Assembly: GCA_021044545.1 (NCBI GenBank)
Contig: CP087990.1
Coordinates: 2,071,038 to 2,103,037, forward strand
DNA length: 32,000 bases
From: Comamonadaceae bacterium M7527
GTDB taxonomy: Bacteria; Pseudomonadota; Gammaproteobacteria; Burkholderiales; Burkholderiaceae_C
Direction: 5' to 3'
Every line of letters begins with the position of its first letter. The first letter of the stretch is position 1. The position numbers were made by a program, and so were the translations under genes. This document shows, one piece after another, positions 3,659-21,577 of the stretch. The notes beneath the pieces are model-generated. The model was not told the origin of the DNA and ran no database searches. It saw only the letters and a program-made list of their open reading frames with translations.

Positions 3659-3734
3659 GGCCCGGTAGCTCAGTTGGTAGAGCAGCGGATTGAAAATCCG
3701 CGTGTCGATGGTTCGATTCCGTCCCAGGCCACCA
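3659..3734 (+). tRNA. tRNA-Phe (anticodon GAA), 76 nt including encoded CCA
   Basis: Cloverleaf folded by hand: acceptor GGCCCGG/CCAGGCC (one C-A mismatch at 5:68), D arm GCTC-AGTTGGTA-GAGC, anticodon arm GCGGA-TTGAAAA-TCCGC, variable loop GTGTC, T arm GATGG-TTCGATT-CCGTC, then ACCA. Very similar to E. coli tRNA-Phe. Confidence 0.93.
3690..3734 (+). repeat. attL: 45-bp core repeat (anticodon loop to CCA of tRNA-Phe)
   Basis: The exact 45-mer ttgaaaatccgcgtgtcgatggttcgattccgtcccaggccacca recurs at 12610..12654 and 21528..21572. Identity stops exactly at the base 5' of ttgaaaa. Confidence 0.9.
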
Positions 3735-3740
3735 AATACT

Positions 3741-3775
3741 CACCGTAGTCTTGCAAAAGGCTACGGTGTTTTTGT
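3741..3775 (+). terminator. Island-borne rho-independent terminator directly after the reconstituted tRNA-Phe
   Basis: Stem caccgtagtc / ggctacggtg (8 Watson-Crick pairs, one G-U, one more pair), loop ttgcaaaa, followed by ttttt. Confidence 0.7.
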
Positions 3776-3812
3776 TTGTGCATCTCATTCTGCTAGTGCT
3801 GTGCAGTAGACG

Positions 3813-5021
3813 ATGCACAAGCTAGCCAACACTCACCATTGCACACCAACCACCACCATTCGCTTGCGTGACGGTGAGCTAGTCATTTACAAACGCAGCC
3901 GCAGCTTGCAGTACCAATGTCGCTACAAGCTAAGCGACGGCACTTGGACAAGAGCTAGCACTGGCAAAGCAGCTCTGGAGCACGCCATTGCTCGCGCATG
4001 TGATATCTACGATGAATCACGCTATCGACAGCGTCTTGGTTTAGCACACCGTGCACACTCTGTTGCACAGATTGCAGCTGTTTGCTGTGCTGAGCTACGG
4101 CAGCAGATAGATGCAAAAGGCAAGAAGACTGCGCTCAACGACTACTTGAGCATCATCGAGCGTTACTTTGTGCCTTACTTTGGCGAACGCTTGCTTGAAT
4201 CATTGACGCACACAGACATACGTGAGTTTGAGCTGTGGCGCGATAGGCCGCTGTCTAGAGCTCCAAAGACAAGCACGCTCAACAATTTCACAAGTGCTTG
4301 GAGCAGATTGACTGCAGTAGCTGTAGAGCGAGGCTACATCAGTGAGCGAGTACCACTGCCAAAGCCCACAAGCAAGGGCATGAAGGGCACTACACGAGCA
4401 GCATTCAGCGGCGACGAGATGACTGCACTGCTAGCGTTTATGGAGCAGTGGTGCAAGCAAGGTGTCAAAGCTGTTCAGCGTGAAATTCGCCCTTTGCTGC
4501 GCGACTATGTAGAGCTGCTGCTGTTTACTGGCATGAGGCACGGCACAGAGGCGATGAACATACGTTGGCGCGACATAGAGTGGCACACAAAGGATGGTGT
4601 GCGCTACTTGCGCATACACGTGAGTGGCAAAACTGGCAGCAGATGGTTGATTGCCAAACACGCAGCCGTCCATGCGCTGCAACGGCTGCACGCTAGACAA
4701 AGGGATGTTTGTGAGATGTCGTTTGAAACCCTGTTTGCAGCGCGAGTGCAACAACTGCTGTTCAGATACAGCGATGGACATCAGCCACACAGCTTGGTTG
4801 GCACGTTTCGCAAGCTGATGCGTGACAGTGGCATGCTCAAGAACACACAAGGGCAGAGTCGCACGCTGTACTCAATACGCCATACCTACGCCACGCTTGC
4901 ACTGTTGGAGGGTAGTGCAGACATACACACACTCAGCAAGCAGCTTGGCAACAGTGCAGCGATGATTGAGAGGCACTACAGCAAGCTCACAGCGACTATG
5001 GCAGCTGAGAAGTTGGCTTGA
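3813..5021 (+). CDS. Tyrosine recombinase / integrase, 402 aa (allele 1)
   Basis: Catalytic signature: Arg in LFTGMRHGTE, H-x-x-R in SIRHTYATLAL, Tyr in MIERHYSKL. Position is immediately next to the tRNA att site. Confidence 0.9.
   Translation: MHKLANTHHCTPTTTIRLRDGELVIYKRSRSLQYQCRYKLSDGTWTRASTGKAALEHAIARACDIYDESRYRQRLGLAHRAHSVAQIAAVCCAELRQQIDAKGKKTALNDYLSIIERYFVPYFGERLLESLTHTDIREFELWRDRPLSRAPKTSTLNNFTSAWSRLTAVAVERGYISERVPLPKPTSKGMKGTTRAAFSGDEMTALLAFMEQWCKQGVKAVQREIRPLLRDYVELLLFTGMRHGTEAMNIRWRDIEWHTKDGVRYLRIHVSGKTGSRWLIAKHAAVHALQRLHARQRDVCEMSFETLFAARVQQLLFRYSDGHQPHSLVGTFRKLMRDSGMLKNTQGQSRTLYSIRHTYATLALLEGSADIHTLSKQLGNSAAMIERHYSKLTATMAAEKLA
4717..4731 (+). promoter_or_regulatory. Motif site M5 (degenerate): tgtcgtttgaaaccc, inside int
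   Basis: 13/15 match to M1. Confidence 0.3.
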
Positions 5022-5024
5022 AGC

Positions 5025-5040
5025 TGTCGTTTAAAACCAC
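5025..5040 (+). promoter_or_regulatory. Motif site M1: tgtcgtttaaaaccac (TGTCGTTTNAAACSAC family)
   Basis: The 17-mer ctgtcgtttaaaaccac is identical at 5024..5040 and 7409..7425. Lies between the stop codons of int and the wHTH gene. Confidence 0.6.
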
Positions 5041-5044
5041 AACT

Positions 5045-5362
5045 CTAAGACGATCCTTCAAGCTGCTTCAAGTACTGGCGCACTTGGATAACACCGCGTT
5101 TGCTCAGACAGTAGTACTTCGCACGCTTGTCATGTCCATGTTGACGCTCTATGAGCTCAAGGCGCTCCAAGCGTTCCACGCTTCGCTTGAGTGTTGGCAA
5201 GGATGATTGGCACATCACATTTAAAGACTTGAGCATGAGCGCAGACGGATGAACGCGAAACAGTTCAAGCAGAACTGTTAACTCGTCACGTCTACTGACT
5301 GCCAAAACGCTTCGTTCAAACGATTGCGCTGACAAAACTCTTGCAGCTGTCTCAAAAAACAT
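5045..5362 (-). CDS. Small winged-helix (MarR/ArsR-like) DNA-binding protein, 105 aa
   Basis: LPTLKRSVERLERLELIERQHGHDKRAKYYCLSKRG looks like a recognition helix plus wing. Convergent with int and divergent from the micropeptide/Wzz-like operon across an AT-rich spacer. Confidence 0.6.
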   Translation of the reverse strand: MFFETAARVLSAQSFERSVLAVSRRDELTVLLELFRVHPSALMLKSLNVMCQSSLPTLKRSVERLERLELIERQHGHDKRAKYYCLSKRGVIQVRQYLKQLEGSS

Positions 5363-5542
5363 GCTGCGATGATGCAGTCATTTCATGGTCAAAGTAAAAA
5401 CTAAATGCAAAAACAGTATTTCAATAAAAAACAAAACGTTAAAAGATTTTTATGCTGATACATCACTGTTTTCGGCGCTAAATATTGCTAGACGCTATGT
5501 TTACGAGCTTACGCTAGGCGCTGTTTTTAGAACGACTTAGCA

Positions 5543-5656
5543 ATGAAAAAAATCAAATTTACCTTTGGAGCAAAGCTCGCTCTTGTGTCTGCTGTTGTTG
5601 GTTTTGGTGCCTCAGTGTTCTTTCTAATAAAAGAGATCACTAGAGGTATGGCATGA
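5543..5656 (+). CDS. 37-aa single-pass membrane micropeptide (MKKIKFTFGAKLALVSAVVGFGASVFFLIKEITRGMA), below the ORF-track size cut-off
   Basis: Translated by hand. Basic N-terminus, roughly 20-residue hydrophobic helix, short polar tail. Its TGA overlaps the ATG of the 514-aa gene (ATGA at 5653..5656). No clear SD, but the upstream region is AT-rich. Confidence 0.5.
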   Translation: MKKIKFTFGAKLALVSAVVGFGASVFFLIKEITRGMA

Positions 5657-7197
5657 ACGAGCAGCGATTTGAGTCTTCAGACGAAATTGATCTAGGTAGG
5701 TTCTTTACTAACCTTTGGAGTAAACGGCTAGTCGTTGTTGTGTTTGTGGTTCTTGGCTTTGCTGTTGGTGGTGTGCAAGGACTCTTTTCGCAAGCAAGCT
5801 CATTCACCAACACGGTTGCTACTGTGCATGTCAAGCTGAACTTCAAAGGTGCAGAGCTTGGCGAGTATCCAAACGGCTCCAAGTACGCACCAACAGATGT
5901 GATTGCGAGCAAAGTGCTCTCAAGGGTGTATCGAGCAAACAGCCTGGATGACTACGACATTGAGTTGGAGGAGTTTGTATCTGCAGTCAACGCTTATCCG
6001 TGGATACCTAACCAAGCTGCAATGGACGCTAAGTACGCGGATCTTTTTAGTGAAAAAAAGCTAAGCGCACTTGATCGTCAAAAATTGGATGAGCAGTATC
6101 AACAAGAAACACGAAACAGCAATGGCAGATTTTTGATGCTGCAGTGGAGTGGAGACTCAGCTGCAAAAGTGTCCAAAGCGGTTGCACAGAAAGTGTTGGC
6201 AGATATTCCTAAGCAGTGGGCTTCTGTGAGTATTCAAGAGTACGGCGTGTTGGATCTTGAGGTTGTAGTGCCAAGCAAGTTGGATCAGTATCTACTTGAT
6301 ACTGCTGAGTACATCGTCGTTGGTGACTACCTACGCGACTTTGCGAGACAATTAAAAGTGGCTGCACTTGCGTTACAGCAAGATGCTGTCGTAGCAGTTT
6401 TAAAAGACGAACAAACTCAAAGCACAGTTGGTGATGTTGGCAAGCTCATACTGAACTTAGAAAACTTTCACTTGAGTACGCTGCAGCGAACGTTCCTCAT
6501 TGCGCCGCCACGATCTAACGCTGAGGCGGCAAGTTTGTACTTGAGCAGTCGACAACGAGAGTTAGAAGAAAAAATTGCAGAAGCCGAGCGCAAGTCTGAC
6601 GTGATCAATCGCGTCTACCGCGAGTACACGGACAGTGCTGAGACGAAGTCGGCGAGTACTCAAAATGCTGCAGACAAAAATGGCAATTTATCGCCTCAAA
6701 TTGGCGACGACTTCTTGACAAAACTTATGCGTATTGGCGACGAACTATCTGATGCGAAGTACAAGCAAGACTTGCTGAAGGAGCGCAAAGAGTTGTCTTT
6801 TGAAGCCGCTGAGCTTGCAACTGAAAAGCAGCGTATTGAAGCTATTGTTGATGCATTGAGCCAGCCGCGCAGCGTGCAAGTTATCAGTAATCGTGAGGCA
6901 CTAGACAAGAGCGTTAGCTACGTGGTGTCTGAGCTCTCAAACTATGCACAGACATTGGACAGAATCAATCTTATGGCACGTGCTGCAAAGCTAGGGAAAG
7001 TTGGCTCGTTGTACGAAGTCATCAGAGCGCCACAAGTGAGCAGTAGCAGCGTTGATGCGCTAAAAGCTGCGGTGAAGAATGCGTTGTTTGGTTTGCTTGG
7101 TGGTTTGTTTCTTGGAATATTCGTAGCGTTTATTCGCGTTGTGTTGCAAGAGGCACGCTCGCCAAAGTCGTCATCAAACCATGTCGTTGCTGTGTAG
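5653..7197 (+). CDS. Wzz / polysaccharide co-polymerase (PCP)-like two-TM protein with a long coiled-coil periplasmic domain, 514 aa
   Basis: N-terminus SSDEIDLGRFFTNLWSKRLVVVVFVVLGFAVGG matches the classic Wzz N-terminal motif plus TM1. C-terminal APQVSSSS...ALFGLLGGLFLGIFVAFIRVVL is a Pro/Ser segment plus Gly-rich TM2. The region between them is rich in E/K/Q heptad-like sequence. AGAGG lies 6 nt before the ATG. Confidence 0.7.
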   Translation: MNEQRFESSDEIDLGRFFTNLWSKRLVVVVFVVLGFAVGGVQGLFSQASSFTNTVATVHVKLNFKGAELGEYPNGSKYAPTDVIASKVLSRVYRANSLDDYDIELEEFVSAVNAYPWIPNQAAMDAKYADLFSEKKLSALDRQKLDEQYQQETRNSNGRFLMLQWSGDSAAKVSKAVAQKVLADIPKQWASVSIQEYGVLDLEVVVPSKLDQYLLDTAEYIVVGDYLRDFARQLKVAALALQQDAVVAVLKDEQTQSTVGDVGKLILNLENFHLSTLQRTFLIAPPRSNAEAASLYLSSRQRELEEKIAEAERKSDVINRVYREYTDSAETKSASTQNAADKNGNLSPQIGDDFLTKLMRIGDELSDAKYKQDLLKERKELSFEAAELATEKQRIEAIVDALSQPRSVQVISNREALDKSVSYVVSELSNYAQTLDRINLMARAAKLGKVGSLYEVIRAPQVSSSSVDALKAAVKNALFGLLGGLFLGIFVAFIRVVLQEARSPKSSSNHVVAV

Positions 7198-7214
7198 CGT
7201 GCCAAAGTCCAAAT

Positions 7215-7248
7215 AAAAAGCCACTAGTGTTGAGCTAGTGGCTTTTTT
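7215..7248. terminator. Bidirectional rho-independent terminator between the convergent Wzz-like and AAA+ genes
   Basis: aaaaagccactag - tgttgag - ctagtggcttttt: a 13-bp perfect stem with A-run and T-run flanks. Confidence 0.8.
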
Positions 7249-7263
7249 GTTGTCTGACTAGGA

Positions 7264-7971
7264 CTACTTGCTAGCAGCTTGTTTGATGCTGTTGAGTGCT
7301 GCTCTCGCAGCTGCATTGCCGCGCTGCACTTTTAGCATCAAACGCTGCAAGCTGAACATCACATTCCTAAACGAGCCATTGTTGCCACTGATGGCAGCTA
7401 ACAGTTGACTGTCGTTTAAAACCACTTCTGCATCGCTTGCCATGCGTCGAGCGATTGGCAAAAACTCAGCATCTGCTGCTGCGTTCATCTCTATCAACAC
7501 GCATCTATCCTTCAAACCCTTGTCTAACGCTGCGATGTTGTTGGTGGTGAGGATGAACACAGCACGCTTGTTGTTGAGCACTGTTTTCATGCTGCCTTGT
7601 GCGAGCTTGCTCAAGTTATCCACCTCATCAAAAATCAAGTAGTGCAAACCACTCGCATTCAAAGATTGCACGTTCATCATCTTTTTCACAGACTCCATAA
7701 TCGTCGTGTTTGTATGCCCTTGCTGACAGCCAAAAAACTCAGCCTCCATTGCCAACGTGTCTTGTGTCTTGCCAAATTCGATAGCAGAAGGTAGCAAGCG
7801 TGCAAGCGTTGTCTTACCACTGCCAAATGTGCCATACAGCAAAATGCCACTCTTGCCTTCGTATGGAAAAGGTAAGCTGCCACTGACAATGTCTTCAATC
7901 AGTTCGCGTGATTCGTCGTTTCCAAAGACAATTTCGTCGATGGTGGTAGGGGTATATTCAAATTTGTTCAT
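7264..7971 (-). CDS. Clamp-loader (RFC small subunit / T4 gp44 / RarA)-like AAA+ ATPase, 235 aa, lacking most of a collar domain
   Basis: YTPTTIDEIVFGNDESRELIEDIV, then Walker A LLYGTFGSGKTTLARLL, Walker B YLIFDEVDNLSKLAQ, sensor-1 FILTTNN, and KDRCVLIEM in the position of the RFC SRC arginine-finger motif. Collinear by eye with T4 gp44. Confidence 0.75.
   Translation of the reverse strand: MNKFEYTPTTIDEIVFGNDESRELIEDIVSGSLPFPYEGKSGILLYGTFGSGKTTLARLLPSAIEFGKTQDTLAMEAEFFGCQQGHTNTTIMESVKKMMNVQSLNASGLHYLIFDEVDNLSKLAQGSMKTVLNNKRAVFILTTNNIAALDKGLKDRCVLIEMNAAADAEFLPIARRMASDAEVVLNDSQLLAAISGNNGSFRNVMFSLQRLMLKVQRGNAAARAALNSIKQAASK
7410..7425 (+). promoter_or_regulatory. Motif site M2: tgtcgtttaaaaccac, inside the AAA+ gene
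   Basis: Exact 17-nt match with M1. Confidence 0.6.
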
Positions 7972-8009
7972 GTTTGTCTTTCGTTTGTTGATTTGTTGGT
8001 TGGTTATGT

Positions 8010-8735
8010 TTAAGCTGCTAGCTTGAAAGCTTCAGCGTTTTCGCTGTACATCGACAGCAGTGCAGCGTTCAGTGCAGTCGCTGAGCGAACGATTGACTTG
8101 ATTGCAAAGCTGCCATCTGCTTGCTGCTCTGCAATCAGCACACACTCTTCGCCAACATAGTTGCTGTCGCTCATTTCACTCAGCTGTTTAGAGCTAACGC
8201 TTCCAAGTATTGGCATGCTTGAGATATGTTCTTGCATCATTTCTGCTTTGATTTTTGGACTGATGTACGTGGCACTCTTTGACAAGCGAACTTCTTGTAT
8301 GCCACCACGCTGTTCAATCCAATCTGCCAAAGCACTTGGCAATACACCTTCCTTCTGTGCACTTCGCAGCACAAGCGAGTACGTGCTAACACGTCGTCTG
8401 TCTACATCGCCAAATACTGCTTTAACGATACGTGTCATCAGTGGACTTTCACGTTTAACGACTAGCTTGCGTTCCTTTAAAAACGCTTGCAGTTCATTGG
8501 CACGCTGCTTCGCAGCAGACACCTCCAAAGGAGCTCCATAAGACAAGCAGTCAGCAAGTACGCTATACAGCTGTTGGTTGCTTGTGCGAAAAGCGTTGTT
8601 TTGCCATTGCGTGCGTTTGTTCTCCATTGCTTGCAGTGAAGCTGCAGCTGTCATGTCAAATGCTGCCTCATTGGTAGCTGTTGCTGAAGTGTGTGTGTCG
8701 TTTGAAACGACAGCTGATTTGGTGGTAACTTGCAT
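8010..8735 (-). CDS. Unknown 241-aa protein, first gene of the operon with the AAA+ ATPase
   Basis: Long ORF with protein-like composition. ATG at 8735 is preceded by GGAG with a 6-nt spacing (the ORF-track start at 8747 is a TTG). There is a 38-nt gap to the ATPase gene. I recognise no family. Confidence 0.65.
   Translation of the reverse strand: MQVTTKSAVVSNDTHTSATATNEAAFDMTAAASLQAMENKRTQWQNNAFRTSNQQLYSVLADCLSYGAPLEVSAAKQRANELQAFLKERKLVVKRESPLMTRIVKAVFGDVDRRRVSTYSLVLRSAQKEGVLPSALADWIEQRGGIQEVRLSKSATYISPKIKAEMMQEHISSMPILGSVSSKQLSEMSDSNYVGEECVLIAEQQADGSFAIKSIVRSATALNAALLSMYSENAEAFKLAA
8696..8712. promoter_or_regulatory. Motif site M4: tgtcgtttgaaacgaca, a perfect 8+1+8 palindrome near the 5' end of the 241-aa gene
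   Basis: Read directly from the sequence. Sits 24-40 nt inside the ORF from the ATG at 8735. Confidence 0.6.
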
Positions 8736-8836
8736 AAAAATCTCCAAAATATCGTGTAAAAAATTATCGTTTGCATTATTGCTTGCGATGTAATAATTAT
8801 ATTAAAATCAACGTTTTACAGCCATAAACGTCTTAC

Positions 8837-9613
8837 GTGCTAGTATTAGATGTTAAGAATATGAGAAGATATTTTTCAGCACCAACTCCACGCTTTGGTA
8901 AGCAAAGCAGTCGTTTGTCGATTGGTAATCAGCAGCGCAGCCCTTACTATTGGTGGTGGCAGTACTTGCGTCGTAACGCTGACTACATAGCGTGCTGTGA
9001 GCGTGGTGGCAAAGGTAAGCTTGCAAAGCTCTACGCTGACTTTGGTGACGTTCGAAACGACAACTTCCACGAGTGGTGGACAAGTAACGATAGGGGAGTA
9101 ACGCTATTCGCTGAGCAACATTTGGCAGTGCGTTTTGGCGAGTTGGCAAGCGCTGAGCAGTGGCAAGCTAGTTGGCACGCTGATGATGTGCTTGTGGTGG
9201 CTGTACCTTTGGAGATGAGCAAGCGTTCTATCAAGTCTGCGTTCGGCAAGCTATTAGATAAACGACACACAGACGTTAAACGTGGACGTCCATCTATTGC
9301 AAAGCTGAAAGAACACAGTACTGCTCTATATGCGCTAGAGCGCAACTACACCATTAATGGTTTGCAAAACACATTGGCTGTTTATGACTTGTGGATAGAC
9401 AATCAAGCACGCAGCAAAGCAGATAAATTGGCACTGTGGCAAATAGCTGCAGAGCTGAAGCTAAACAGAGCTGCAATCAAAGACGCGACGAGTGACGATA
9501 GTGGCGATAGATTGAGTGGACGTAACACGCTTGGGGCTACTGTGCACCGCTATGTCACGCAAGCCAAGCGCATCATTGGCAATACAGCAAAGGGCAAGTT
9601 CCCCTTGTCGTAG
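8837..9613 (+). CDS. 258-aa protein with W-rich xxLRRNxxY motif (transcriptional-regulator-like domain, DUF6499/FseA-like); true start may be the ATG at 8861
   Basis: RSPYYWWWQYLRRNADYIACCE resembles the W-x-EFLRRNP-x-Y signature of the N-terminal domain of FseA-type ICE activators (from memory). Divergent from the 241-aa/AAA+ operon across an AT-rich spacer. The 8837 start is a GTG. Confidence 0.55.
   Translation: MLVLDVKNMRRYFSAPTPRFGKQSSRLSIGNQQRSPYYWWWQYLRRNADYIACCERGGKGKLAKLYADFGDVRNDNFHEWWTSNDRGVTLFAEQHLAVRFGELASAEQWQASWHADDVLVVAVPLEMSKRSIKSAFGKLLDKRHTDVKRGRPSIAKLKEHSTALYALERNYTINGLQNTLAVYDLWIDNQARSKADKLALWQIAAELKLNRAAIKDATSDDSGDRLSGRNTLGATVHRYVTQAKRIIGNTAKGKFPLS
9046..9062. promoter_or_regulatory. 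Motif site M7: tgacgttcgaaacgaca (15/17 match to M4), inside the 258-aa gene
   Basis: Read directly from the sequence. Confidence 0.4.
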
Positions 9614-9616
9614 CTG

Positions 9617-9632
9617 TGTCGTTTTAAACCAC
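9617..9632 (+). promoter_or_regulatory. Motif site M3: tgtcgttttaaaccac, between the 258-aa gene stop and the short recombinase stop
   Basis: 15/16 identical to M1/M2. Lies 3 nt from the recombinase gene's 3' end. Confidence 0.55.
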
Positions 9633-9634
9633 GC

Positions 9635-10207
9635 TCAAACCAACTCGACAGCTCTGCGCTTCACATCATCATTGACAGTGATGTAACGCTGTGTGGTTGC
9701 AATGCTCTTGTGACCAGCAAGTGAAGCAAGCACAAACACGCTGACACCTTGACTTGCGAGTGACGTTAAAAACGTCTTGCGTCCACTGTGACTGCTTGCA
9801 CCTTTGATGCCAGCAGCTTTGAACAACCAGTAAAAGTGCTGTGACAGCACGTTGGCGCTGAATCCCTTGCGTGCACCACTGTAAGTTGTGAACAGTGCTT
9901 GCTCCTCCTCGTACCACTTGCGCGAGTTGATGTAGCACTGCAGTTCCTCTTGCAGTCGTGTGCTCACATACACAGTGCGTGCATGGTTGTGTTTGACGCG
10001 GTGAGCACCTAGATATATTTCTGCTCGAACCGTGCCGTTCGCATCGCGTACATCACACAGCTTCAAGTCTGCCACCTCGCTCACACGCAAACCACTCATC
10101 ACCATCATCAACAGCATCGCTCTATCGCGTGCTGCAAACTTGCGTGTGCTGATGTAGTCGAGTGTGTGCGCAAGTTCCGCGCTGGTTAGTGATTTAGCTG
10201 CAGCCAT
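9635..10207 (-). CDS. Short (190 aa) catalytic-domain-only tyrosine recombinase, FimB/FimE-sized
   Basis: Arg in MSGLRVSEVADL, H-x-x-R in SSHSGRKTFLT, H..Y in LAGHKSIATTQRYITV. GAGGAA SD lies 6 nt before the ATG. Confidence 0.8.
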   Translation of the reverse strand: MAAAKSLTSAELAHTLDYISTRKFAARDRAMLLMMVMSGLRVSEVADLKLCDVRDANGTVRAEIYLGAHRVKHNHARTVYVSTRLQEELQCYINSRKWYEEEQALFTTYSGARKGFSANVLSQHFYWLFKAAGIKGASSHSGRKTFLTSLASQGVSVFVLASLAGHKSIATTQRYITVNDDVKRRAVELV

Positions 10208-10617
10208 TTGTGTTCCTCAAAGATTTTCAGTGTTGTTAGTGTGTTTTCATTGCCAGTGTTTGAGCAACCAAGTCCGTTCAATTTGGCGGTGCTTTGATGA
10301 GTTGTAGGTTTTCAACGCACTAGCACTTGGTTCACGAACTTTGTGTGTTCTCTTTGGCTGTGTATTTAGCTGAACGCTGCTGCGCTCTGCAAGCGTTTTG
10401 ATATATGTGCTGCTGCTCAGCTCTTCATGCACCTCTTTTATGCGCTTAGACGAAGGATTTGACGTGTTTGCGTGTTGTGCTCGCTGTGCTCACAAATTCA
10501 TCTGCAGCTCAAATATTTCTGCTGCGCAAAAAGTTGCGGTGAAGTACTTACAGAAGTGAGGTGGTGATTTGCACTCGGTGCTGTTTGTGAAGTGCTTACA
10601 CTTCATTGGCAAGTAAG

Positions 10618-10635
10618 AGCAAGCAGCTGCTTGCT
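10618..10635. repeat. 18-bp perfect palindrome AGCAAGCAGCTGCTTGCT in the low-coding region
   Basis: Read directly from the sequence. Overlaps a second palindrome, TGCTAGCA. Preceded by the hairpin gaagtg-ctta-cacttc (10589..10604) and the direct repeat gaagtacttaca / gaagtgcttaca (10541 and 10589). Confidence 0.7.
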
Positions 10636-11001
10636 AGCAGTTCGCTCGTCGCTCTCTGCTGTGCTCTTCTGTCTTTTGACATGACTGTTTTGGAAATGTT
10701 TCGAGCAAACGACGGCTATGTCGCACAGTGTGCGAACAGTAGCTGTCGTTGTAGTCTGTTCCGTATAAAGTCCGTCGCAGTACAAGCATGAGTGAGTTTG
10801 ACGGAAGACGTATGTATTAAAACTTCCAAACTGCTTCAGCATTGGTTTGCTTTGCAGATACTCAGCGGCACTCTCGTTCTACACAGCCTTCATGCCAACT
10901 GTGTAGTGATTGCAAAGTCATTAGCCGTCATATTTCCCTTTGCGTTTTTAGCCTTTGATAGCGCAGTGCTTTATCTGCGTGGTGTTGCCTTGGTGTTTGC
11001 C

Positions 11002-11355
11002 TTAGTGTTTGTTCTGTCTGTGCTGCCTGAACAATCGCTTGTTAGCTCGTGTGCAGATGTTGAGCACTTGGTAGGCACGCTTGTCGCTCAGTCGCGCTCG
11101 TTTGCGTTTGTTCTGGATGCACTTGAGGTAGTCGCCGAGTACCGTAGCTTGCTTACTGTCTATAAGCTCAAGCTGCGCATGCTCTGCGTGAATGCCAAGT
11201 GTTCGCTTCGCAGCTGCTTGTGCTTTAAGGAGTAGTGCGTCTGTCGTTGCAAACGTCGCTGCAGCTAAGCCTCTTTGCTTTAGCCACGCATCAGTTGCTT
11301 CAGTGTCACGCAATGCACTTACTCGAATTTGATATTGCTGTTCTTGTTTGTTCAT
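11002..11355 (-). CDS. Possible ribbon-helix-helix-like small DNA-binding protein, 117 aa from the second ATG
   Basis: YQIRVSALRDTEATDAWLKQRGLAAATFATTDALLLKA has a strand-helix-helix pattern, followed by a basic C-terminus. Composition is far more protein-like than the antisense 147-aa ORF. No clear SD. Confidence 0.4.
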   Translation of the reverse strand: MNKQEQQYQIRVSALRDTEATDAWLKQRGLAAATFATTDALLLKAQAAAKRTLGIHAEHAQLELIDSKQATVLGDYLKCIQNKRKRARLSDKRAYQVLNICTRANKRLFRQHRQNKH

Positions 11356-11420
11356 GCAAGTATTTAGCATCTGCCAAACAAAACCTTGGCGAAACTGAAG
11401 CGTTGTTTGGCAATAAGTGC

Positions 11421-11440
11421 TGCAGTGCAGTGCAGTGCAT
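11421..11440. repeat. Pentanucleotide tract (TGCAG)x3 plus TGCAT, flanked by the inverted repeat aagtgc / gcactt (11415..11451)
   Basis: Read directly from the sequence. Lies in the divergent spacer between the RHH-like gene and the 146-aa gene. Confidence 0.7.
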
Positions 11441-11536
11441 GTGTGGCACTTTGACGCTCATCGCCTTTTTCGGTTGCTCAAGTTGTGGTGGTGACAACAC
11501 ACTAGCTGTATTGCAACTGCATAGGAACACAGCAAC

Positions 11537-11977
11537 ATGACAGCAACACTTGGCACTCTAAAGCTCACAGCAGCACAAAAGCCCTCGCACGTAACTCCAA
11601 TACAGCAGCGACGCAACAAACTGGCGAAGCGTTTGTTCGAGCAAGCTGAGTTGGCGAAAGCCCAACAACTCGGCTCAACATACAAACCAATCAAGTTCAA
11701 GACTGTTACGGACGCAGATGGTATGCGAAAGCAAGTGGAGCAGTACAAGACAGTGAAGGCGTGGTGGTTTACGGCAGACAACGGTAAGTTGGCACTGAGC
11801 GTGCGCTACGGTACAAAAGTGCTTGAGCTAGCAAAAGGCAGGTGGAGCGTTGAGGTAGCAAGCACACAAGAGCTTGTGCCAACGTTAGAGCTGATTAAAG
11901 CTGCGGTGCTAAACGGTGAGCTAGATGCTGCAATCGATGTTGCATCAGACAAATTGAAGCTTGGCTTTAAGCGTTGA
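11537..11977 (+). CDS. Hypothetical 146-aa protein
   Basis: Clean ORF with AGGAA 9 nt upstream of the ATG and balanced composition. No family recognised. Confidence 0.6.
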   Translation: MTATLGTLKLTAAQKPSHVTPIQQRRNKLAKRLFEQAELAKAQQLGSTYKPIKFKTVTDADGMRKQVEQYKTVKAWWFTADNGKLALSVRYGTKVLELAKGRWSVEVASTQELVPTLELIKAAVLNGELDAAIDVASDKLKLGFKR

Positions 11978-12038
11978 TGCAAGCGATGCAATCAAAGTCG
12001 CTCTGTAGATTGTCTTGTGCTGCGTTGATAAATACTCC

Positions 12039-12365
12039 ATGCAGTACAAGGAATTCAAAACGACATCACAGAGCGCAGCGCAATCAAAGCCAGCTTCGTC
12101 TAGCAGTGATGCTGCCAGCAACACAAAGCAAGGCAGCAAGCAGCGTGCAGCCAAGCGTGCACGCACTACTGCAAAGACACAAACGCTTGCGCAGATGCGC
12201 ATTCAGCATTTGCAAGACAAAGTCAAACACGCAAAGGCTGAGCTTGCGGCAGAGATTGCAGCGCAGCGTTTGGCGCTATCCAACAAGCAGCGTGAGCAAA
12301 AGCGTAGAGCACTACAGAGGCAGAGTCTGCAAGCTGTACAAGCTGCGAAGCGTGAGCAAGACTAA
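12039..12365 (+). CDS. Basic Lys/Gln/Ala-rich coiled-coil protein, 108 aa from the ATG at 12039
   Basis: QRAAKRARTTAKTQTLAQMRIQHLQDKVKHAKAELAAEIAAQRLALSNKQREQKRRALQRQ. It is the last gene before the att junction. Unit 2 has a 2-bp deletion that removes only the last 4 codons. Confidence 0.5.
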   Translation: MQYKEFKTTSQSAAQSKPASSSSDAASNTKQGSKQRAAKRARTTAKTQTLAQMRIQHLQDKVKHAKAELAAEIAAQRLALSNKQREQKRRALQRQSLQAVQAAKREQD

Positions 12366-12609
12366 GTGTCTTTCAAAACGTCACTTGCACAACCGTAGCA
12401 AAACCGCTGATAGCTGCACAGTTACGCTCAAGCAGCTTGTGCAGCTTAGACACGCTAGTGCAGTGCTGAGAGGCATAGTGCAAATGGTGCGAGCGCAGCA
12501 GCAGTGTGCTAAATGTTTTGTAGAAAAAACGTTGCAGAATTTCGCACACCAATCTGTTCCAAAGCAAAATCCAGTTGAAAAATTTAACTCTTTCGCACTC
12601 TTGTCAGCG

Positions 12610-12654
12610 TTGAAAATCCGCGTGTCGATGGTTCGATTCCGTCCCAGGCCACCA
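12610..12654 (+). repeat. Internal att (attP-like junction): 45-bp partial tRNA-Phe 3' copy between the two units
   Basis: Exact copy of 3690..3734. It lacks the 5' 31 nt of the tRNA, so it is not a functional tRNA gene. Confidence 0.9.
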
Positions 12655-12660
12655 AATATT

Positions 12661-12695
12661 CACCGTAGTCTTGCAAAAGACTACGGTGTTTTTGT
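12661..12695 (+). terminator. Copy of the island-borne terminator; the G-U pair of unit 1 is an A-U pair here
   Basis: caccgtagtc ttgcaaaa gactacggtg ttttt. Confidence 0.65.
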
Positions 12696-12732
12696 TTGTG
12701 CATCTCATTCTGCTAGTGCTGCGCAGTAGACG

Positions 12733-13941
12733 ATGCACAAGCTAGCCAACACTCACCACTGCACACTAACCACCACCATTCGCTTGCGTGATGGTGAGCT
12801 TGTCATCTACAAACGCAGCCGCAGCTTGCAGTACCAATGTCGCTACAAGCTAAGCGACGGAACTTGGACAAGAGCTAGCACTGGCAAAGCAGCTCTAGAA
12901 CATGCCATTGCTCGCGCATGTGATATCTACGATGAATCACGCTATCGACAGCGTCTTGGTTTAGCACACCGTGCACACTCTGTTGCACAGATTGCAGCTG
13001 TTTGCTGTGCTGAGCTGCGGCAGCAGATAGACGCAAAAGGCAAGAAGACTGCGCTCAACGATTACTTGAGCATCATCGAGCGCTACTTTGTGCCGTACTT
13101 TGGCGAACGCTTGTTTGAATCATTGACGCACACAGACATACGCGAGTTTGAGCTGTGGCGAGATAGACGGCTGTCTAGGGCACCAAAGACAAGCACGCTC
13201 AACACTTTCACAAGTGCTTGGAGCAGATTGACTGCAACAGCTGTAGAGCGTGGCTACATCAGTGAGCGAGTACCACTGCCAAAACTCACAAGCAAGGGCA
13301 TGAAGGGCACTACACGAGCAGCATTCAGTGGCGACGAGATGACGGCACTGCTGGCGTTTATGGAGCAGTGGTGCACACAAGGTGTCAAAGCCGTAGAGCG
13401 TGAAATTCGCCCTTTGCTGCGTGACTACGTGGAGCTGCTGCTTTTTACTGGCATGAGGCACGGCACAGAGGCGATGAACATACGTTGGCGCGACATAGAG
13501 TGGCACACAAAGGATGGTGTGCGTTACTTGCGCATACACGTGAGTGGCAAAACTGGCAGCAGATGGTTGATTGCCAAACACGCAGCCGTCCATGCGCTGC
13601 AACGGCTGCACGCTAGACAAAGGGATGTTTGTGAGATGTCGTTTGAAACCCTGTTTGCAGCGCGAGTGCAACAACTGCTGTTCAGATACAGCGATGGACA
13701 TCAGCCACACAGCTTGGTTGGCACGTTTCGCAAGCTGATGCGTGACAGTGGCATGCTCAAGAACACACAAGGGCAGAGTCGCACGCTGTACTCAATACGC
13801 CATACCTACGCCACGCTTGCACTGTTGGAGGGTAGTGCAGACATACACACACTCAGCAAGCAGCTTGGCAACAGTGCAGCGATGATTGAGAGGCACTACA
13901 GCAAGCTCACAGCGACTATGGCAGCTGAGAAGTTGGCTTGA
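12733..13941 (+). CDS. Tyrosine recombinase / integrase, 402 aa (allele 2; 8 amino-acid differences from allele 1, all in the first 221 residues)
   Basis: Same catalytic motifs as allele 1. Differences read from the ORF track: P11L, L128F, P145R, N157T, V168T, P184L, K214T, Q221E. Confidence 0.9.
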   Translation: MHKLANTHHCTLTTTIRLRDGELVIYKRSRSLQYQCRYKLSDGTWTRASTGKAALEHAIARACDIYDESRYRQRLGLAHRAHSVAQIAAVCCAELRQQIDAKGKKTALNDYLSIIERYFVPYFGERLFESLTHTDIREFELWRDRRLSRAPKTSTLNTFTSAWSRLTATAVERGYISERVPLPKLTSKGMKGTTRAAFSGDEMTALLAFMEQWCTQGVKAVEREIRPLLRDYVELLLFTGMRHGTEAMNIRWRDIEWHTKDGVRYLRIHVSGKTGSRWLIAKHAAVHALQRLHARQRDVCEMSFETLFAARVQQLLFRYSDGHQPHSLVGTFRKLMRDSGMLKNTQGQSRTLYSIRHTYATLALLEGSADIHTLSKQLGNSAAMIERHYSKLTATMAAEKLA

Positions 13942-13964
13942 AGCTGTCGTTTAAAACCACAACT

Positions 13965-14282
13965 CTAAGACGATCCTTCAAGCTGCTTCAAGTACTGGCG
14001 CACTTGGATAACACCGCGTTTGCTCAGACAGTAGTACTTCGCACGCTTGTCATGTCCATGTTGACGCTCTATGAGCTCAAGGCGCTCCAAGCGTTCCACG
14101 CTTCGCTTGAGTGTTGGCAAGGATGATTGGCACATCACATTTAAAGACTTGAGCATGAGCGCAGACGGATGAACGCGAAACAGTTCAAGCAGAACTGTTA
14201 ACTCGTCACGTCTACTGACTGCCAAAACGCTTCGTTCAAACGATTGCGCTGACAAAACTCTTGCAGCTGTCTCAAAAAACAT
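13965..14282 (-). CDS. Small winged-helix DNA-binding protein (copy 2)
   Basis: Identical translation to 5045..5362. Confidence 0.6.
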   Translation of the reverse strand: MFFETAARVLSAQSFERSVLAVSRRDELTVLLELFRVHPSALMLKSLNVMCQSSLPTLKRSVERLERLELIERQHGHDKRAKYYCLSKRGVIQVRQYLKQLEGSS

Positions 14283-14462
14283 GCTGCGATGATGCAGTCA
14301 TTTCATGGTCAAAGTAAAAACTAAATGCAAAAACAGTATTTCAATAAAAAACAAAACGTTAAAAGATTTTTATGCTGATACATCACTGTTTTCGGCGCTA
14401 AATATTGCTAGACGCTATGTTTACGAGCTTACGCTAGGCGCTGTTTTTAGAACGACTTAGCA

Positions 14463-14576
14463 ATGAAAAAAATCAAATTTACCTTTGGAGCAAAGCTCGC
14501 TCTTGTGTCTGCTGTTGTTGGTTTTGGTGCCTCAGTGTTCTTTCTAATAAAAGAGATCACTAGAGGTATGGCATGA
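14463..14576 (+). CDS. 37-aa membrane micropeptide (copy 2)
   Basis: Identical sequence to 5543..5656. Confidence 0.5.
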   Translation: MKKIKFTFGAKLALVSAVVGFGASVFFLIKEITRGMA

Positions 14577-16117
14577 ACGAGCAGCGATTTGAGTCTTCAG
14601 ACGAAATTGATCTAGGTAGGTTCTTTACTAACCTTTGGAGTAAACGGCTAGTCGTTGTTGTGTTTGTGGTTCTTGGCTTTGCTGTTGGTGGTGTGCAAGG
14701 ACTCTTTTCGCAAGCAAGCTCATTCACCAACACGGTTGCTACTGTGCATGTCAAGCTGAACTTCAAAGGTGCAGAGCTTGGCGAGTATCCAAACGGCTCC
14801 AAGTACGCACCAACAGATGTGATTGCGAGCAAAGTGCTCTCAAGGGTGTATCGAGCAAACAGCCTGGATGACTACGACATTGAGTTGGAGGAGTTTGTAT
14901 CTGCAGTCAACGCTTATCCGTGGATACCTAACCAAGCTGCAATGGACGCTAAGTACGCGGATCTTTTTAGTGAAAAAAAGCTAAGCGCACTTGATCGTCA
15001 AAAATTGGATGAGCAGTATCAACAAGAAACACGAAACAGCAATGGCAGATTTTTGATGCTGCAGTGGAGTGGAGACTCAGCTGCAAAAGTGTCCAAAGCG
15101 GTTGCACAGAAAGTGTTGGCAGATATTCCTAAGCAGTGGGCTTCTGTGAGTATTCAAGAGTACGGCGTGTTGGATCTTGAGGTTGTAGTGCCAAGCAAGT
15201 TGGATCAGTATCTACTTGATACTGCTGAGTACATCGTCGTTGGTGACTACCTACGCGACTTTGCGAGACAATTAAAAGTGGCTGCACTTGCGTTACAGCA
15301 AGATGCTGTCGTAGCAGTTTTAAAAGACGAACAAACTCAAAGCACAGTTGGTGATGTTGGCAAGCTCATACTGAACTTAGAAAACTTTCACTTGAGTACG
15401 CTGCAGCGAACGTTCCTCATTGCGCCGCCACGATCTAACGCTGAGGCGGCAAGTTTGTACTTGAGCAGTCGACAACGAGAGTTAGAAGAAAAAATTGCAG
15501 AAGCCGAGCGCAAGTCTGACGTGATCAATCGCGTCTACCGCGAGTACACGGACAGTGCTGAGACGAAGTCGGCGAGTACTCAAAATGCTGCAGACAAAAA
15601 TGGCAATTTATCGCCTCAAATTGGCGACGACTTCTTGACAAAACTTATGCGTATTGGCGACGAACTATCTGATGCGAAGTACAAGCAAGACTTGCTGAAG
15701 GAGCGCAAAGAGTTGTCTTTTGAAGCCGCTGAGCTTGCAACTGAAAAGCAGCGTATTGAAGCTATTGTTGATGCATTGAGCCAGCCGCGCAGCGTGCAAG
15801 TTATCAGTAATCGTGAGGCACTAGACAAGAGCGTTAGCTACGTGGTGTCTGAGCTCTCAAACTATGCACAGACATTGGACAGAATCAATCTTATGGCACG
15901 TGCTGCAAAGCTAGGGAAAGTTGGCTCGTTGTACGAAGTCATCAGAGCGCCACAAGTGAGCAGTAGCAGCGTTGATGCGCTAAAAGCTGCGGTGAAGAAT
16001 GCGTTGTTTGGTTTGCTTGGTGGTTTGTTTCTTGGAATATTCGTAGCGTTTATTCGCGTTGTGTTGCAAGAGGCACGCTCGCCAAAGTCGTCATCAAACC
16101 ATGTCGTTGCTGTGTAG
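14573..16117 (+). CDS. Wzz/PCP-like two-TM protein (copy 2)
   Basis: Identical translation to 5653..7197. Confidence 0.7.
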   Translation: MNEQRFESSDEIDLGRFFTNLWSKRLVVVVFVVLGFAVGGVQGLFSQASSFTNTVATVHVKLNFKGAELGEYPNGSKYAPTDVIASKVLSRVYRANSLDDYDIELEEFVSAVNAYPWIPNQAAMDAKYADLFSEKKLSALDRQKLDEQYQQETRNSNGRFLMLQWSGDSAAKVSKAVAQKVLADIPKQWASVSIQEYGVLDLEVVVPSKLDQYLLDTAEYIVVGDYLRDFARQLKVAALALQQDAVVAVLKDEQTQSTVGDVGKLILNLENFHLSTLQRTFLIAPPRSNAEAASLYLSSRQRELEEKIAEAERKSDVINRVYREYTDSAETKSASTQNAADKNGNLSPQIGDDFLTKLMRIGDELSDAKYKQDLLKERKELSFEAAELATEKQRIEAIVDALSQPRSVQVISNREALDKSVSYVVSELSNYAQTLDRINLMARAAKLGKVGSLYEVIRAPQVSSSSVDALKAAVKNALFGLLGGLFLGIFVAFIRVVLQEARSPKSSSNHVVAV

Positions 16118-16134
16118 CGTGCCAAAGTCCAAAT

Positions 16135-16168
16135 AAAAAGCCACTAGTGTTGAGCTAGTGGCTTTTTT
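16135..16168. terminator. Bidirectional terminator (copy 2)
   Basis: Identical to 7215..7248. Confidence 0.8.
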
Positions 16169-16183
16169 GTTGTCTGACTAGGA

Positions 16184-16891
16184 CTACTTGCTAGCAGCTT
16201 GTTTGATGCTGTTGAGTGCTGCTCTCGCAGCTGCATTGCCGCGCTGCACTTTTAGCATCAAACGCTGCAAGCTGAACATCACATTCCTAAACGAGCCATT
16301 GTTGCCACTGATGGCAGCTAACAGTTGACTGTCGTTTAAAACCACTTCTGCATCGCTTGCCATGCGTCGAGCGATTGGCAAAAACTCAGCATCTGCTGCT
16401 GCGTTCATCTCTATCAACACGCATCTATCCTTCAAACCCTTGTCTAACGCTGCGATGTTGTTGGTGGTGAGGATGAACACAGCACGCTTGTTGTTGAGCA
16501 CTGTTTTCATGCTGCCTTGTGCGAGCTTGCTCAAGTTATCCACCTCATCAAAAATCAAGTAGTGCAAACCACTCGCATTCAAAGATTGCACGTTCATCAT
16601 CTTTTTCACAGACTCCATAATCGTCGTGTTTGTATGCCCTTGCTGACAGCCAAAAAACTCAGCCTCCATTGCCAACGTGTCTTGTGTCTTGCCAAATTCG
16701 ATAGCAGAAGGTAGCAAGCGTGCAAGCGTTGTCTTACCACTGCCAAATGTGCCATACAGCAAAATGCCACTCTTGCCTTCGTATGGAAAAGGTAAGCTGC
16801 CACTGACAATGTCTTCAATCAGTTCGCGTGATTCGTCGTTTCCAAAGACAATTTCGTCGATGGTGGTAGGGGTATATTCAAATTTGTTCAT
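16184..16891 (-). CDS. Clamp-loader-like AAA+ ATPase (copy 2)
   Basis: Identical translation to 7264..7971. Confidence 0.75.
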   Translation of the reverse strand: MNKFEYTPTTIDEIVFGNDESRELIEDIVSGSLPFPYEGKSGILLYGTFGSGKTTLARLLPSAIEFGKTQDTLAMEAEFFGCQQGHTNTTIMESVKKMMNVQSLNASGLHYLIFDEVDNLSKLAQGSMKTVLNNKRAVFILTTNNIAALDKGLKDRCVLIEMNAAADAEFLPIARRMASDAEVVLNDSQLLAAISGNNGSFRNVMFSLQRLMLKVQRGNAAARAALNSIKQAASK

Positions 16892-16929
16892 GTTTGTCTT
16901 TCGTTTGTTGATTTGTTGGTTGGTTATGT

Positions 16930-17655: not shown

Positions 17656-17756
17656 AAAAATCTCCAAAATATCGTGTAAAAAATTATCGTTTGCATTATT
17701 GCTTGCGATGTAATAATTATATTAAAATCAACGTTTTACAGCCATAAACGTCTTAC

Positions 17757-18533: not shown

Positions 18534-18554
18534 CTGTGTCGTTTTAAACCACGC

Positions 18555-20275: not shown

Positions 20276-20456
20276 GCAAGTATTTAGCATCTGCCAAACA
20301 AAACCTTGGCGAAACTGAAGCGTTGTTTGGCAATAAGTGCTGCAGTGCAGTGCAGTGCATGTGTGGCACTTTGACGCTCATCGCCTTTTTCGGTTGCTCA
20401 AGTTGTGGTGGTGACAACACACTAGCTGTATTGCAACTGCATAGGAACACAGCAAC

Positions 20457-20897: not shown

Positions 20898-20958
20898 TGC
20901 AAGCGATGCAATCAAAGTCGCTCTGTAGATTGTCTTGTGCTGCGTTGATAAATACTCC

Positions 20959-21572: not shown

Positions 21573-21577
21573 AGTTC

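Follow-up and report, generated by a model that had tools for sequence, protein, structure and literature searches.

A probable hitch-hiking integrative element with a novel conserved backbone, caught as a two-copy array at a tRNA-Phe gene of a Comamonadaceae bacterium

Next to a tRNA-Phe gene in the genome of Comamonadaceae bacterium M7527 lies a low-GC unit of almost 9 kb with two integrase-family genes. What kind of element is it, and which of its genes serve the element and which are its cargo? We analysed a 32,000-nt stretch of contig CP087990.1 (positions 2,071,038 to 2,103,037 of the forward strand; hereafter the window, numbered from its first letter). An initial annotation of the window, made from the sequence alone, had described positions 3735–12654 as a compact island with wholly uncharacterized cargo. 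Our firm conclusion is that the unit represents, in complete form, a large and so far uncharacterized family of small integrase-driven integrative elements of freshwater Betaproteobacteria, and that it was caught as a two-copy array at tRNA-Phe. We are highly confident that the family consists of integrative elements with a fixed backbone and one cargo slot; each of the functional assignments proposed below is held with confidence well under that.

The unit is 8920 bp long (3735–12654) and has a GC content of 0.479, compared with 0.577 and 0.590 in the two flanks. The drop in GC starts at 3735 and holds through 21573. ARAGORN places a tRNA-Phe gene at the left edge of the unit (Table 1), and the last 51–53 nt of this gene recur as direct attachment site (att) repeats in three copies, at 3683–3735, 12605–12655 and 21523–21573, all of which are intact. 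The integrase gene (int) starts 78 nt past att. These direct repeats of a tRNA 3' end, the deviant composition, and the presence of the same backbone in unrelated contexts (tRNA-Phe, tRNA-Met and non-tRNA sites) in several genera identify a tRNA-inserted island of the tyrosine integrase type, and confirm the earlier description of a lower-GC island in a tRNA gene. The 8920-bp unit is real, and it is one of two tandem copies: self-comparison of the window aligned 3683–12655 with 12605–21573 head-to-tail at 99.5% identity, and the second copy occupies 12655–21573.

The two copies are not uniformly similar. They differ by 43 substitutions, every one of which falls in the att-proximal 870 bp (3739–4604 in copy 1 and 12659–13524 in copy 2), a segment that takes in the DNA upstream of int and the first two-thirds of the gene. 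Outside it, over 8 kb, the copies are identical except for a 2-bp indel, the GC dinucleotide at 12350–12351 of copy 1 being missing from copy 2 (21269/21270); it changes the last residues of a Lys/Arg-rich protein, which has 116 amino acids (aa) in copy 1 and 112 aa in copy 2. The int alleles show 40 differences, 31 of them at third codon positions, with only 8 amino-acid changes, and both alleles are under purifying selection. Because of this third-position bias and the few amino-acid changes, the copies carry two diverged functional int alleles and not errors, and the array is therefore neither a simple duplication nor a mis-assembly. By recombination with a related element, one copy has acquired a diverged att-proximal segment. 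Near-identical 8.9-kb copies are difficult for short-read assembly, and a mis-assembled duplication, or a decaying and inactive island, was considered for this reason. We regard this explanation as very unlikely indeed, given the confinement of the 43 substitutions to a segment that behaves as two real int alleles, the open reading frames (ORFs) that are intact in both copies save for the indel in the last codons of a small gene, the three intact att copies, and the relatives that independently have the same arrangement.

About 110 related loci were available for comparison. They came from context look-ups, from 185,579 species genomes (19 loci), from a scan of JGI metagenomes and from tblastn searches with the window proteins; the JGI scan gave at least 199 confirmed loci, of which 80 were analysed. 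Across these loci (numbered with the prefix L) the genes share one arrangement: DUF6641 (−), small ORFs (+), a 190-aa recombinase (+), a 250-aa protein (−), a 245-aa protein (+), an AAA+ ATPase (+), a slot, and int (−). Measured from the AAA+ stop codon to the int stop codon, the slot is between 5 bp and 4.1 kb long in the metagenome set, and L004 has one of 5.7 kb. It stays below 0.5 kb and holds no cargo in about half of the elements (for example L011, L013, L019, L179 and L186). As the order is fixed across loci and about half of them are free of cargo, we assign the trio of 250-aa protein, 245-aa protein and ATPase, along with the small recombinase, the small ORFs, DUF6641 and the Lys/Arg-rich protein, to the backbone and not to the cargo. 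Most of what was taken for cargo is conserved backbone; the true cargo of the window comprises a winged helix-turn-helix (wHTH) protein, a 51-aa ORF and a Wzz-like protein.

Elements of this family are about 6.4–12 kb in size. The named hosts include many Polynucleobacter, as well as Dechloromonas, Rubrivivax, Oxalobacteraceae and other Burkholderiales metagenome-assembled genomes (MAGs), a few of which are evidently mis-binned, and the samples are mostly from lakes. Integration occurred at tRNA-Phe (the window, L021, L023 and L119), tRNA-Met (L004) and non-tRNA sites. Homologues of int, with 43–79% identity, are located at the end of related islands. The Dechloromonas elements have a different integrase, with SAM-like N-domains and DUF4160, and in six loci (L022, L154, L158, L166, L171 and L191) int is found at the DUF6641 end instead.

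Junctions between elements recur in other members of the family. The independent metagenome contig L031 is 84.5% identical to the unit over the backbone, and in it the 5' end of int is joined via a 46-nt att core to the DUF6641 end. The source of this attP-type junction could be a circle or a tandem array. Second elements lie adjacent in L009 (three related units), L133, L173, L184, L190 and L191. In L009, from Dechloromonas sp. ZS-1, the tandem units (3500–20100) each end in a Porin_4 paralogue and the junctions repeat the porin 3' end together with its terminator, which suggests that these elements insert at, and replace, a porin gene.

Table 1. Features of the first unit and its borders, with positions in the 32,000-nt window.
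Feature	Position	Strand	Evidence
tRNA-Phe (GAA), integration target	3659..3734	+	ARAGORN; Rfam tRNA 67 bits
attL, tRNA-Phe 3' end, first of three direct att copies	3683..3735	+	self-BLAST and alignment
Hairpin, 12-bp stem and T-run just inside the island	3741..3768	+	terminator scan; repeated 12661-12688
int, 402-aa divergent tyrosine integrase (allele 1)	3813..5021	+	phrog_1 4e-31
105-aa winged-helix (MarR-like) protein in variable slot	5045..5362	-	HTH_27 4e-4, below cut-off
51-aa ORF, doubtful gene	5385..5540	+	weak PHROG match only, 0.0027
514-aa Wzz/PCP-like inner-membrane protein, true cargo	5653..7197	+	two transmembrane segments; sub-threshold Pfam Wzz
Hairpin, 14-bp stem, bidirectional terminator between convergent Wzz-like and AAA+ genes	7215..7247	+	terminator scan
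235-aa clamp-loader-clade AAA+ ATPase, collar-less, backbone	7264..7971	-	phrog_168 1.5e-23; RFC3
245-aa backbone protein, always upstream of AAA+ gene	8010..8747	-	401 homologues; no Pfam match
15-bp palindrome GTCGTTTNAAACGAC (GTCGTT-N3-AACGAC), one of ~9 per unit	8697..8711		
Other palindrome copies (starts), each again at +8920	5026, 7411, 7915, 9047, 9618, 9762, 11243, 12368		
250-aa backbone protein, invariant SPYYWWW.YLRRN motif	8861..9613	+	412 homologues; no Pfam match
190-aa tyrosine recombinase, catalytic domain only (Xer-like)	9635..10207	-	Phage_integrase 1e-26; XerA/C/D models best
32-nt conserved element AGTGTGTT-N14-TTGAGCAACC, upstream of small recombinase gene	10238..10269	+	
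61-aa conserved small ORF	10247..10432	-	tblastn: 70% identity L031; 59-62% L004, L032
79-aa conserved small ORF	10603..10842	-	tblastn matches in at least 9 loci
122-aa conserved small ORF	11002..11370	-	tblastn: 74% L031 (1.95e-56), 28-43% in nine others
Inverted twin of the 32-nt element, upstream of DUF6641	11472..11503	-	
146-aa DUF6641 protein, backbone	11537..11977	+	PF20346 4e-15; phrog_31551 2e-20; 45-79% identity in relatives
116-aa Lys/Arg/Gln-rich protein	12015..12365	+	49% identical homologue in L031
Internal att, attP-type junction joining both copies	12605..12655	+	self-BLAST and alignment
Second tandem copy, whole unit, ends in attR (21523-21573)	12655..21573	+	99.5% identity

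The three slot genes of the window have no counterparts in other family members, as judged by tblastn against the related loci, and they fill the slot. The Wzz-like annotation of the largest is borne out in part. Hydropathy peaks of the 514-aa protein occur only at residues 20–48 and 472–501, and the two transmembrane helices (about 26–46 and 476–498) flank a large periplasmic domain of about 430 helix-rich residues, a topology shared with Wzz/PCP-1 proteins. The scores fall short: the protein reaches 18.3 bits where the gathering threshold is 25.5, its Pfam and NCBIfam scores are all under the curated cut-offs, and its length exceeds that of a typical Wzz. It belongs to a family with just nine members in 5.8 billion proteins, in which the N-terminal Wzz region was matched, at sub-threshold level, in seven of eight (best E-value among the relatives 4.7e-4). 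One 25%-identical relative is encoded at the edge of a glycosyltransferase, asparagine-synthase and methyltransferase gene cluster, and the gene of another, with 54% identity, stands alone on a chromosome. No Wzz structure in the PDB was matched by a profile search. The wHTH protein reported earlier was also found, at a score below threshold, and it is a probable local regulator of the cargo. For the putative micropeptide of 51 aa, tblastn detected no homologue in any of the related loci.

The slots of the relatives hold other genes. That of L004 (11609–17163) encodes a 525-aa unknown protein, a short-chain dehydrogenase, a FAD_binding_4 oxidase, a GtrA-like protein and a UbiA prenyltransferase; we take the last four to resemble a DprE1/DprE2-type set for decaprenyl-phospho-sugar (surface glycan) modification. 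An ABC exporter with unknown proteins occurs in L006, signal-peptide proteins in L021 and L023, and Porin_4 in L009. The cargo of the relatives thus often appears to be envelope-related, and an exclusion role for envelope-type cargo is plausible.

Within the trio, the ATPase matches known protein families. It had been called clamp-loader-like, and the matches to phrog_168 and, in the PDB, to RFC3 (3.7e-7 over residues 5–210) uphold this. In an alignment of ten divergent members (35–89% identity), invariant or nearly invariant positions include Walker A (G50-x-G-K-T54), Walker B (D115-E116), sensor 1 (T142-T143-N144), sensor 2 (N198-G-S-x-R202), and D155-R156-C157 at the position of the SRC arginine finger of clamp loaders, with C157 present in at least 90% of members. 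The arginine finger and sensors expected of a clamp loader are therefore in place, and the closest matches of the protein are clamp loaders (RFC small subunits, T4 gp44 and DnaX). It differs from them in size (235 aa, versus about 320–340 aa) and in having no C-terminal collar, the domain that holds pentamers: the alignment to RFC3 stops at residue 210 of 235, which corresponds to 214 of 340 in RFC3, and the protein ends about 25 residues past the lid domain. Its conserved 245-aa partner is unlike gp62 or delta subunits and has no fold match to clamp-loader subunits.

The 245-aa and 250-aa proteins are abundant and have no Pfam domain. The homologues of the 245-aa protein (52–95% identity) are all unnamed and Pfam-less, and its profile matched 1006 clusters at 50% identity among 1.84 billion representatives. 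Nearly all of these clusters are stand-alone proteins of about 250–300 aa, and domain fusions therefore give no clue to its function. AlphaFold2 (AF2) models have a confident helical core for the 245-aa protein (residues 40–155, predicted local distance difference test score, pLDDT, about 90) with a disordered N-terminus, and a pLDDT of 81 for the 250-aa protein. Foldseek comparisons of both models with the PDB, and of the 250-aa model also with BFVD, found no match (best E-values 0.84–2.2, the 0.84 being that of the 245-aa model in the PDB), and sequence and profile searches of the PDB with these two proteins and the Wzz-like protein gave nothing meaningful. The gene for the 250-aa protein had been listed as a 258-aa ORF from 8837; its true start is probably 8861, as the homologues have 250 aa. 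It had also been described as FseA-like, which is not supported, since none of 28 family members matches DUF6499 or DUF2285 even at E≤1. The sole resemblance to FseA is presumably a short W..YLRRN..Y motif.

A few relatives do without the trio: L119, which has three phrog_8741 paralogues instead, and the second unit of L009. Their int, small recombinase, small ORFs and DUF6641 are retained. Being very common yet not indispensable, the trio could still be read as a favoured payload. In the most distant relatives, L026 and L027 (about 34% identity), the ATPase has 559 aa and two AAA+ modules (for example at L027 10573–12252); DUF6641 is absent from these two loci, which keep the 245-aa protein, the small recombinase and an integrase.

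The backbone also includes the 190-aa recombinase, which is present in all complete loci and in every relative for which that part was recovered. The earlier report of two integrase-family genes holds, with int matched by phrog_1 and the 190-aa protein by Pfam Phage_integrase. Proteins of 185–195 aa and about 35% identity to the latter are common on plasmids (810 records), the closest of them annotated merely as 'site-specific integrase'. In the one context examined, Legionella pLELO, such a small recombinase adjoins RepB, ParB and ParA. A recombinase beside rep and par genes is an arrangement typical of multimer resolution, and by analogy the 190-aa protein may have such a role, although here it is part of a chromosomal integrative element with no recognizable rep or par genes. 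It had also been compared with FimB. Its size fits the approximately 200 aa of FimB and FimE, and an inverted pair of 32-nt elements flanks 1.2 kb of DNA beside its gene; the invertase models of NCBIfam score 26–37 bits on it, against cut-offs of 221–222. An invertible 1.2-kb switch between the 32-nt elements is unlikely, because all loci in which its ORFs were detected, more than 15, share one orientation and the elements are laid out like promoters.

Between this gene and DUF6641, the region 10207–11537 had been read as about 1 kb of structured, low-coding DNA. It instead holds three conserved ORFs on the minus strand (61, 79 and 122 aa), and no Rfam family was matched there; it is T-rich on the plus strand, as are minus-strand genes. 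The 122-aa ORF, detected in more than 10 loci, was also predicted by independent gene callers in L031 and L039. None of the small ORFs matched a SAM-like or integrase N-domain.

Several DNA signals are conserved in addition to the genes. The 32-nt element occurs exactly twice per unit, against zero expected, as an inverted pair that is conserved family-wide. Both copies lie 33–37 nt 5' of a start codon with the same polarity relative to their gene, and their −35/−10 arrangement (TTGCTC and, after about 18 nt, CATACT, TAAATT or CACACT) is consistent with a sigma-70-type promoter. We take them to be two related promoters that face outward and not the ends of an invertible segment. The hairpin at 3741–3768, which is also present in L031, probably serves as a terminator for tRNA-Phe; it lies directly after the island-proximal att, and the island would thus supply the terminator of the tRNA gene that it interrupts. 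The second hairpin (7215–7247) is spanned by a weak match to the Rfam Thr_leader family at 7211–7327 (27 bits, versus a cut-off of 55).

The 15-bp palindrome is the most frequent of these signals, with 32 strand-matches in the window where 0.56 are expected, and none in 14 kb of host flank. It occurs 3–10 times in most related islands, including those of other genera, often at matching positions. One copy lies 45 nt into the ORF of the 245-aa protein and encodes V-V-x-N-D, the sole conserved residues of the disordered N-terminus. In the metagenome loci, mostly from lakes, it is found at 0.65 per kb inside islands and at 0.20 per kb in the flanks; in five Polynucleobacter and Burkholderiaceae genome loci the flank palindromes are all intergenic, mostly near gene ends, and L019 has a variant, GTCCTT-N3-AAGGAC, in both island and flanks. 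The flank copies and the L019 variant therefore make the palindrome look like a host-wide signal in those hosts, enriched in islands. In the window it is confined to the island, in keeping with the low GC content, and this suggests that the island came recently from such a lineage. It is a candidate for a binding site, a recombination site or an uptake-type signal. As an att site the palindrome was rejected: direct repeats flanking L019 and L024 proved to be the palindrome itself, and the repeat search in these two loci is confounded because the palindrome is common in the intergenic DNA of their hosts. The exact palindrome gave 72 single, chance-level matches in IMG/VR and no phage with multiple copies.

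By what route, then, does such an element travel? Scans of all candidate proteins against Pfam, PHROGs, NCBIfam and PADLOC gave no match to a relaxase, type IV secretion system, primase or Rep protein, terminase, capsid, restriction-modification (R-M) system or toxin-antitoxin pair, and so agree with the initial annotation, which had recognized no genes for transfer, replication, packaging, R-M, toxin-antitoxin or named defence systems. Comparison with described small islands gives partial likenesses. The PICMIs, or phage-inducible chromosomal minimalist islands, of Vibrionaceae are about 6 kb long, have int, alpA and primase genes, integrate next to fis, have no genes for capsid remodelling and are packaged in concatemeric form (PMC10803314). 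The element resembles them as a very small integrase-bearing island of few genes, with no capsid-remodelling or packaging genes, with multimeric forms and with aquatic hosts, and differs in having neither AlpA nor primase, in its second recombinase and RFC-like AAA+ module, and in its tRNA-Phe target. With the tycheposons of Prochlorococcus, whose hallmarks include an excisionase and a replication gene such as a primase or helicase (bioRxiv 10.1101/2020.12.28.424599), it shares a tyrosine recombinase, tRNA targets, streamlined planktonic hosts, niche cargo, pile-up at the same tRNA and the lack of its own transfer apparatus, but no primase, helicase or excisionase is detectable here, and the backbone consists of other, Pfam-less families. 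The element would work like a minimalist satellite or a tycheposon-like island builder but falls outside the definitions of both.

The explanations that compete with a hitch-hiking integrative element of this new family differ from it only in the transfer route or in what the trio does. As a phage satellite, the element would be excised after infection by, or induction of, a helper phage, multiply as a concatemer and be packaged headful by headful into helper capsids, as PICMIs are, and the array would be the footprint left when a concatemer or dimer integrated. The size range of 6–12 kb, the minimal gene set, the recurrent tandem and attP-type junctions and the streamlined planktonic hosts all suit this explanation, and the PICMIs demonstrate that an island of similar size can do without capsid-remodelling genes. 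DUF6641 has a PHROG family. In addition, one tRNA-Phe variant, L119 (IMGVR_UViG_3300037863_000413, 134–15193), has an int of 71% identity, the small recombinase and DUF6641, and directly after it come a gene for a large serine recombinase and tail genes of lambda-like type (for minor tail proteins and tail fibre J). However, none of the 13 proteins matched a satellite hallmark (AlpA or Stl regulator, primase or Rep, capsid-size determination, terS or packaging) in Pfam, PHROGs or NCBIfam; L119 is the sole match in IMG/VR and is an integrated copy that includes the host tRNA; and no phage in that database has multiple palindromes. We regard a satellite as possible but doubtful. Alternatively, the element could be an integrative mobilizable element (IME) in which the 190-aa recombinase acts as an atypical relaxase, like MpsA of SGI1, TcpM or MobK, with a small ORF contributing the DNA-binding domain (compare MpsB), the 32-nt element lying in the origin of transfer (oriT) and a co-resident element providing the conjugative pore. 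The window proteins include no canonical relaxase according to the Pfam, PHROGs, NCBIfam and PADLOC scans, and the element would therefore lie outside the usual IME definition. SGI1, whose transfer is helper-dependent, pairs its tyrosine-recombinase-like relaxase MpsA with a separate small N-domain-like protein, MpsB, next to oriT (PMC6414798); the element here similarly has a second protein of tyrosine-recombinase fold, which is the most universally retained backbone gene, with neighbouring small ORFs and a conserved non-coding element about 35 nt upstream. Many islands, furthermore, are oriT-only hitchers (bioRxiv 10.64898/2026.01.13.699239). But MpsA is longer (predicted catalytic tyrosine Y319) and has low identity to canonical recombinases, whereas the 190-aa protein consists of a canonical catalytic domain that matches Xer and integrase models strongly, and the oriT, the mimicry of tra genes and the IncC-type helper context of SGI1 have no equivalent here. 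The 32-nt element looks like a sigma-70 promoter and is matched by a twin before DUF6641, the small ORFs lack the N-domain, the pLELO recombinase sits beside rep and par genes and not beside transfer genes, the plasmid relatives carry no annotation beyond integrase, and no conjugative genes were seen near any locus. An IME is consequently judged unlikely.

The other open question is the trio, which could be a new anti-phage system carried as payload by a minimal vehicle of int and small recombinase, the Wzz-like protein adding surface exclusion. Its absence from L119 and the second unit of L009 would fit a swappable module, AAA+ ATPases with unknown partners are frequent in defence systems, the cargo of the family is enriched in envelope proteins, and one distant member, L025, has a Type III R-M pair just past its DUF6641 end (1803–6658; an N6_N4 methylase of 714 aa and a ResIII helicase-endonuclease of 903 aa). 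Nevertheless, the position and orientation of the trio are fixed in about 110 elements across genera, including the cargo-free ones, which is more typical of core machinery, and effector domains of the nuclease, protease, TIR, SIR2 or pore-forming kinds are not detectable in it. The best result in PADLOC-DB 2.0 is a generic AAA+ similarity to TRIP13 (2.2e-5 over 78 residues), and the other proteins gave 4e-4 (the wHTH protein, with a CARF-associated HTH model), worse, or no match. A defence or exclusion system is therefore not a likely identity for the trio. Of the two possibilities left by the initial annotation, the hitch-hiking element agrees with the integrase and att sites, the lack of transfer, packaging and recognizable replication genes, the occurrence in many genera and the tandem junctions, whereas the undescribed cargo or defence island is unsupported for this unit, its PADLOC results being without meaning and its trio belonging to the backbone.

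We therefore favour, with moderate confidence in the whole, a new family of non-autonomous integrative elements that hitch-hike, and propose the following mechanism. The int protein would excise the element as a circle and re-integrate it, and entry into the att of a resident copy would build tandem arrays. The trio might serve as a maintenance or replication module of the element during its episomal phase. The small Xer-like recombinase may resolve multimers, by analogy with the 185–195-aa recombinases beside plasmid rep and par genes. The two outward-facing promoter-like elements could co-regulate the recombinase and DUF6641 transcripts. Transfer from cell to cell would depend on outside means: phage capsids taking up concatemers, vesicles, transformation or a conjugative helper. 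In the slot, a wHTH-regulated Wzz-like protein would most likely alter the chain length of surface polysaccharides, and hence recognition by phages or grazers.

Several observations weigh against this proposal. No terminal overlaps were found in about 110 contigs, including the 80 metagenome contigs, so that no free circle was seen, and the attP junction is indistinguishable from that of a tandem array. No helper was identified either: profiles of the 245-aa and 250-aa proteins found nothing in IMG/VR, where the family appears only as integrated L119 with its host tRNA, and tblastn gave no match for the 245-aa protein in phage and plasmid collections or for DUF6641 in the phage collection. The ATPase is without the collar domain that clamp loaders need, and its 245-aa partner has no detectable similarity in sequence or fold. 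Because a few relatives do without it, the trio could be a very common accessory module. The role given to the Wzz-like protein is built on sub-threshold similarity.

In Polynucleobacter and other streamlined freshwater plankton, genomic islands are highly variable, and plasmids or integrative and conjugative elements are few. How these bacteria exchange genes is an open question, and the family is a candidate for the vehicle by which their islands are built and their surfaces diversified, since its members are tiny, have a defined slot that often contains envelope or surface genes, and stack in tandem at att. It is also abundant, with more than 400 protein clusters at 90% identity and about 1000 at 50%. 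In the literature searched, we found no paper on DUF6641 and no description of this backbone for Polynucleobacter islands. The two abundant backbone proteins without a Pfam, PDB or viral fold match, together with the collar-less ATPase, are targets in a search for a new mechanism of replication, excision or hijacking. A bolder idea, which we put forward tentatively and consider rather doubtful, is that the backbone is a new machine for mobility and maintenance, made up of the Xer-like recombinase, the 250-aa protein, the 245-aa protein with its ATPase, and a dispersed palindrome that constrains coding sequence, and that it defines a new class of hitch-hiker in streamlined freshwater bacteria. 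If so, the ATPase and its partner could bring the host replisome to the excised circle, the palindromes could be signals for recombination, uptake or packaging, and the element would be neither a satellite of the PICI, P4, PLE or PICMI type nor a relaxase-based IME.

Outside the array, the left flank of the window encodes NtrY/NtrX-like two-component proteins, and the right flank phospholipase A, Rep helicase, PriA, HemE and DsbD. In one relative, L002, an unrelated second integrase (Arm-DNA-bind_3; 6468–7730) is found about 1.6 kb past the int end, and this site appears to be an integration hotspot with more than one island.

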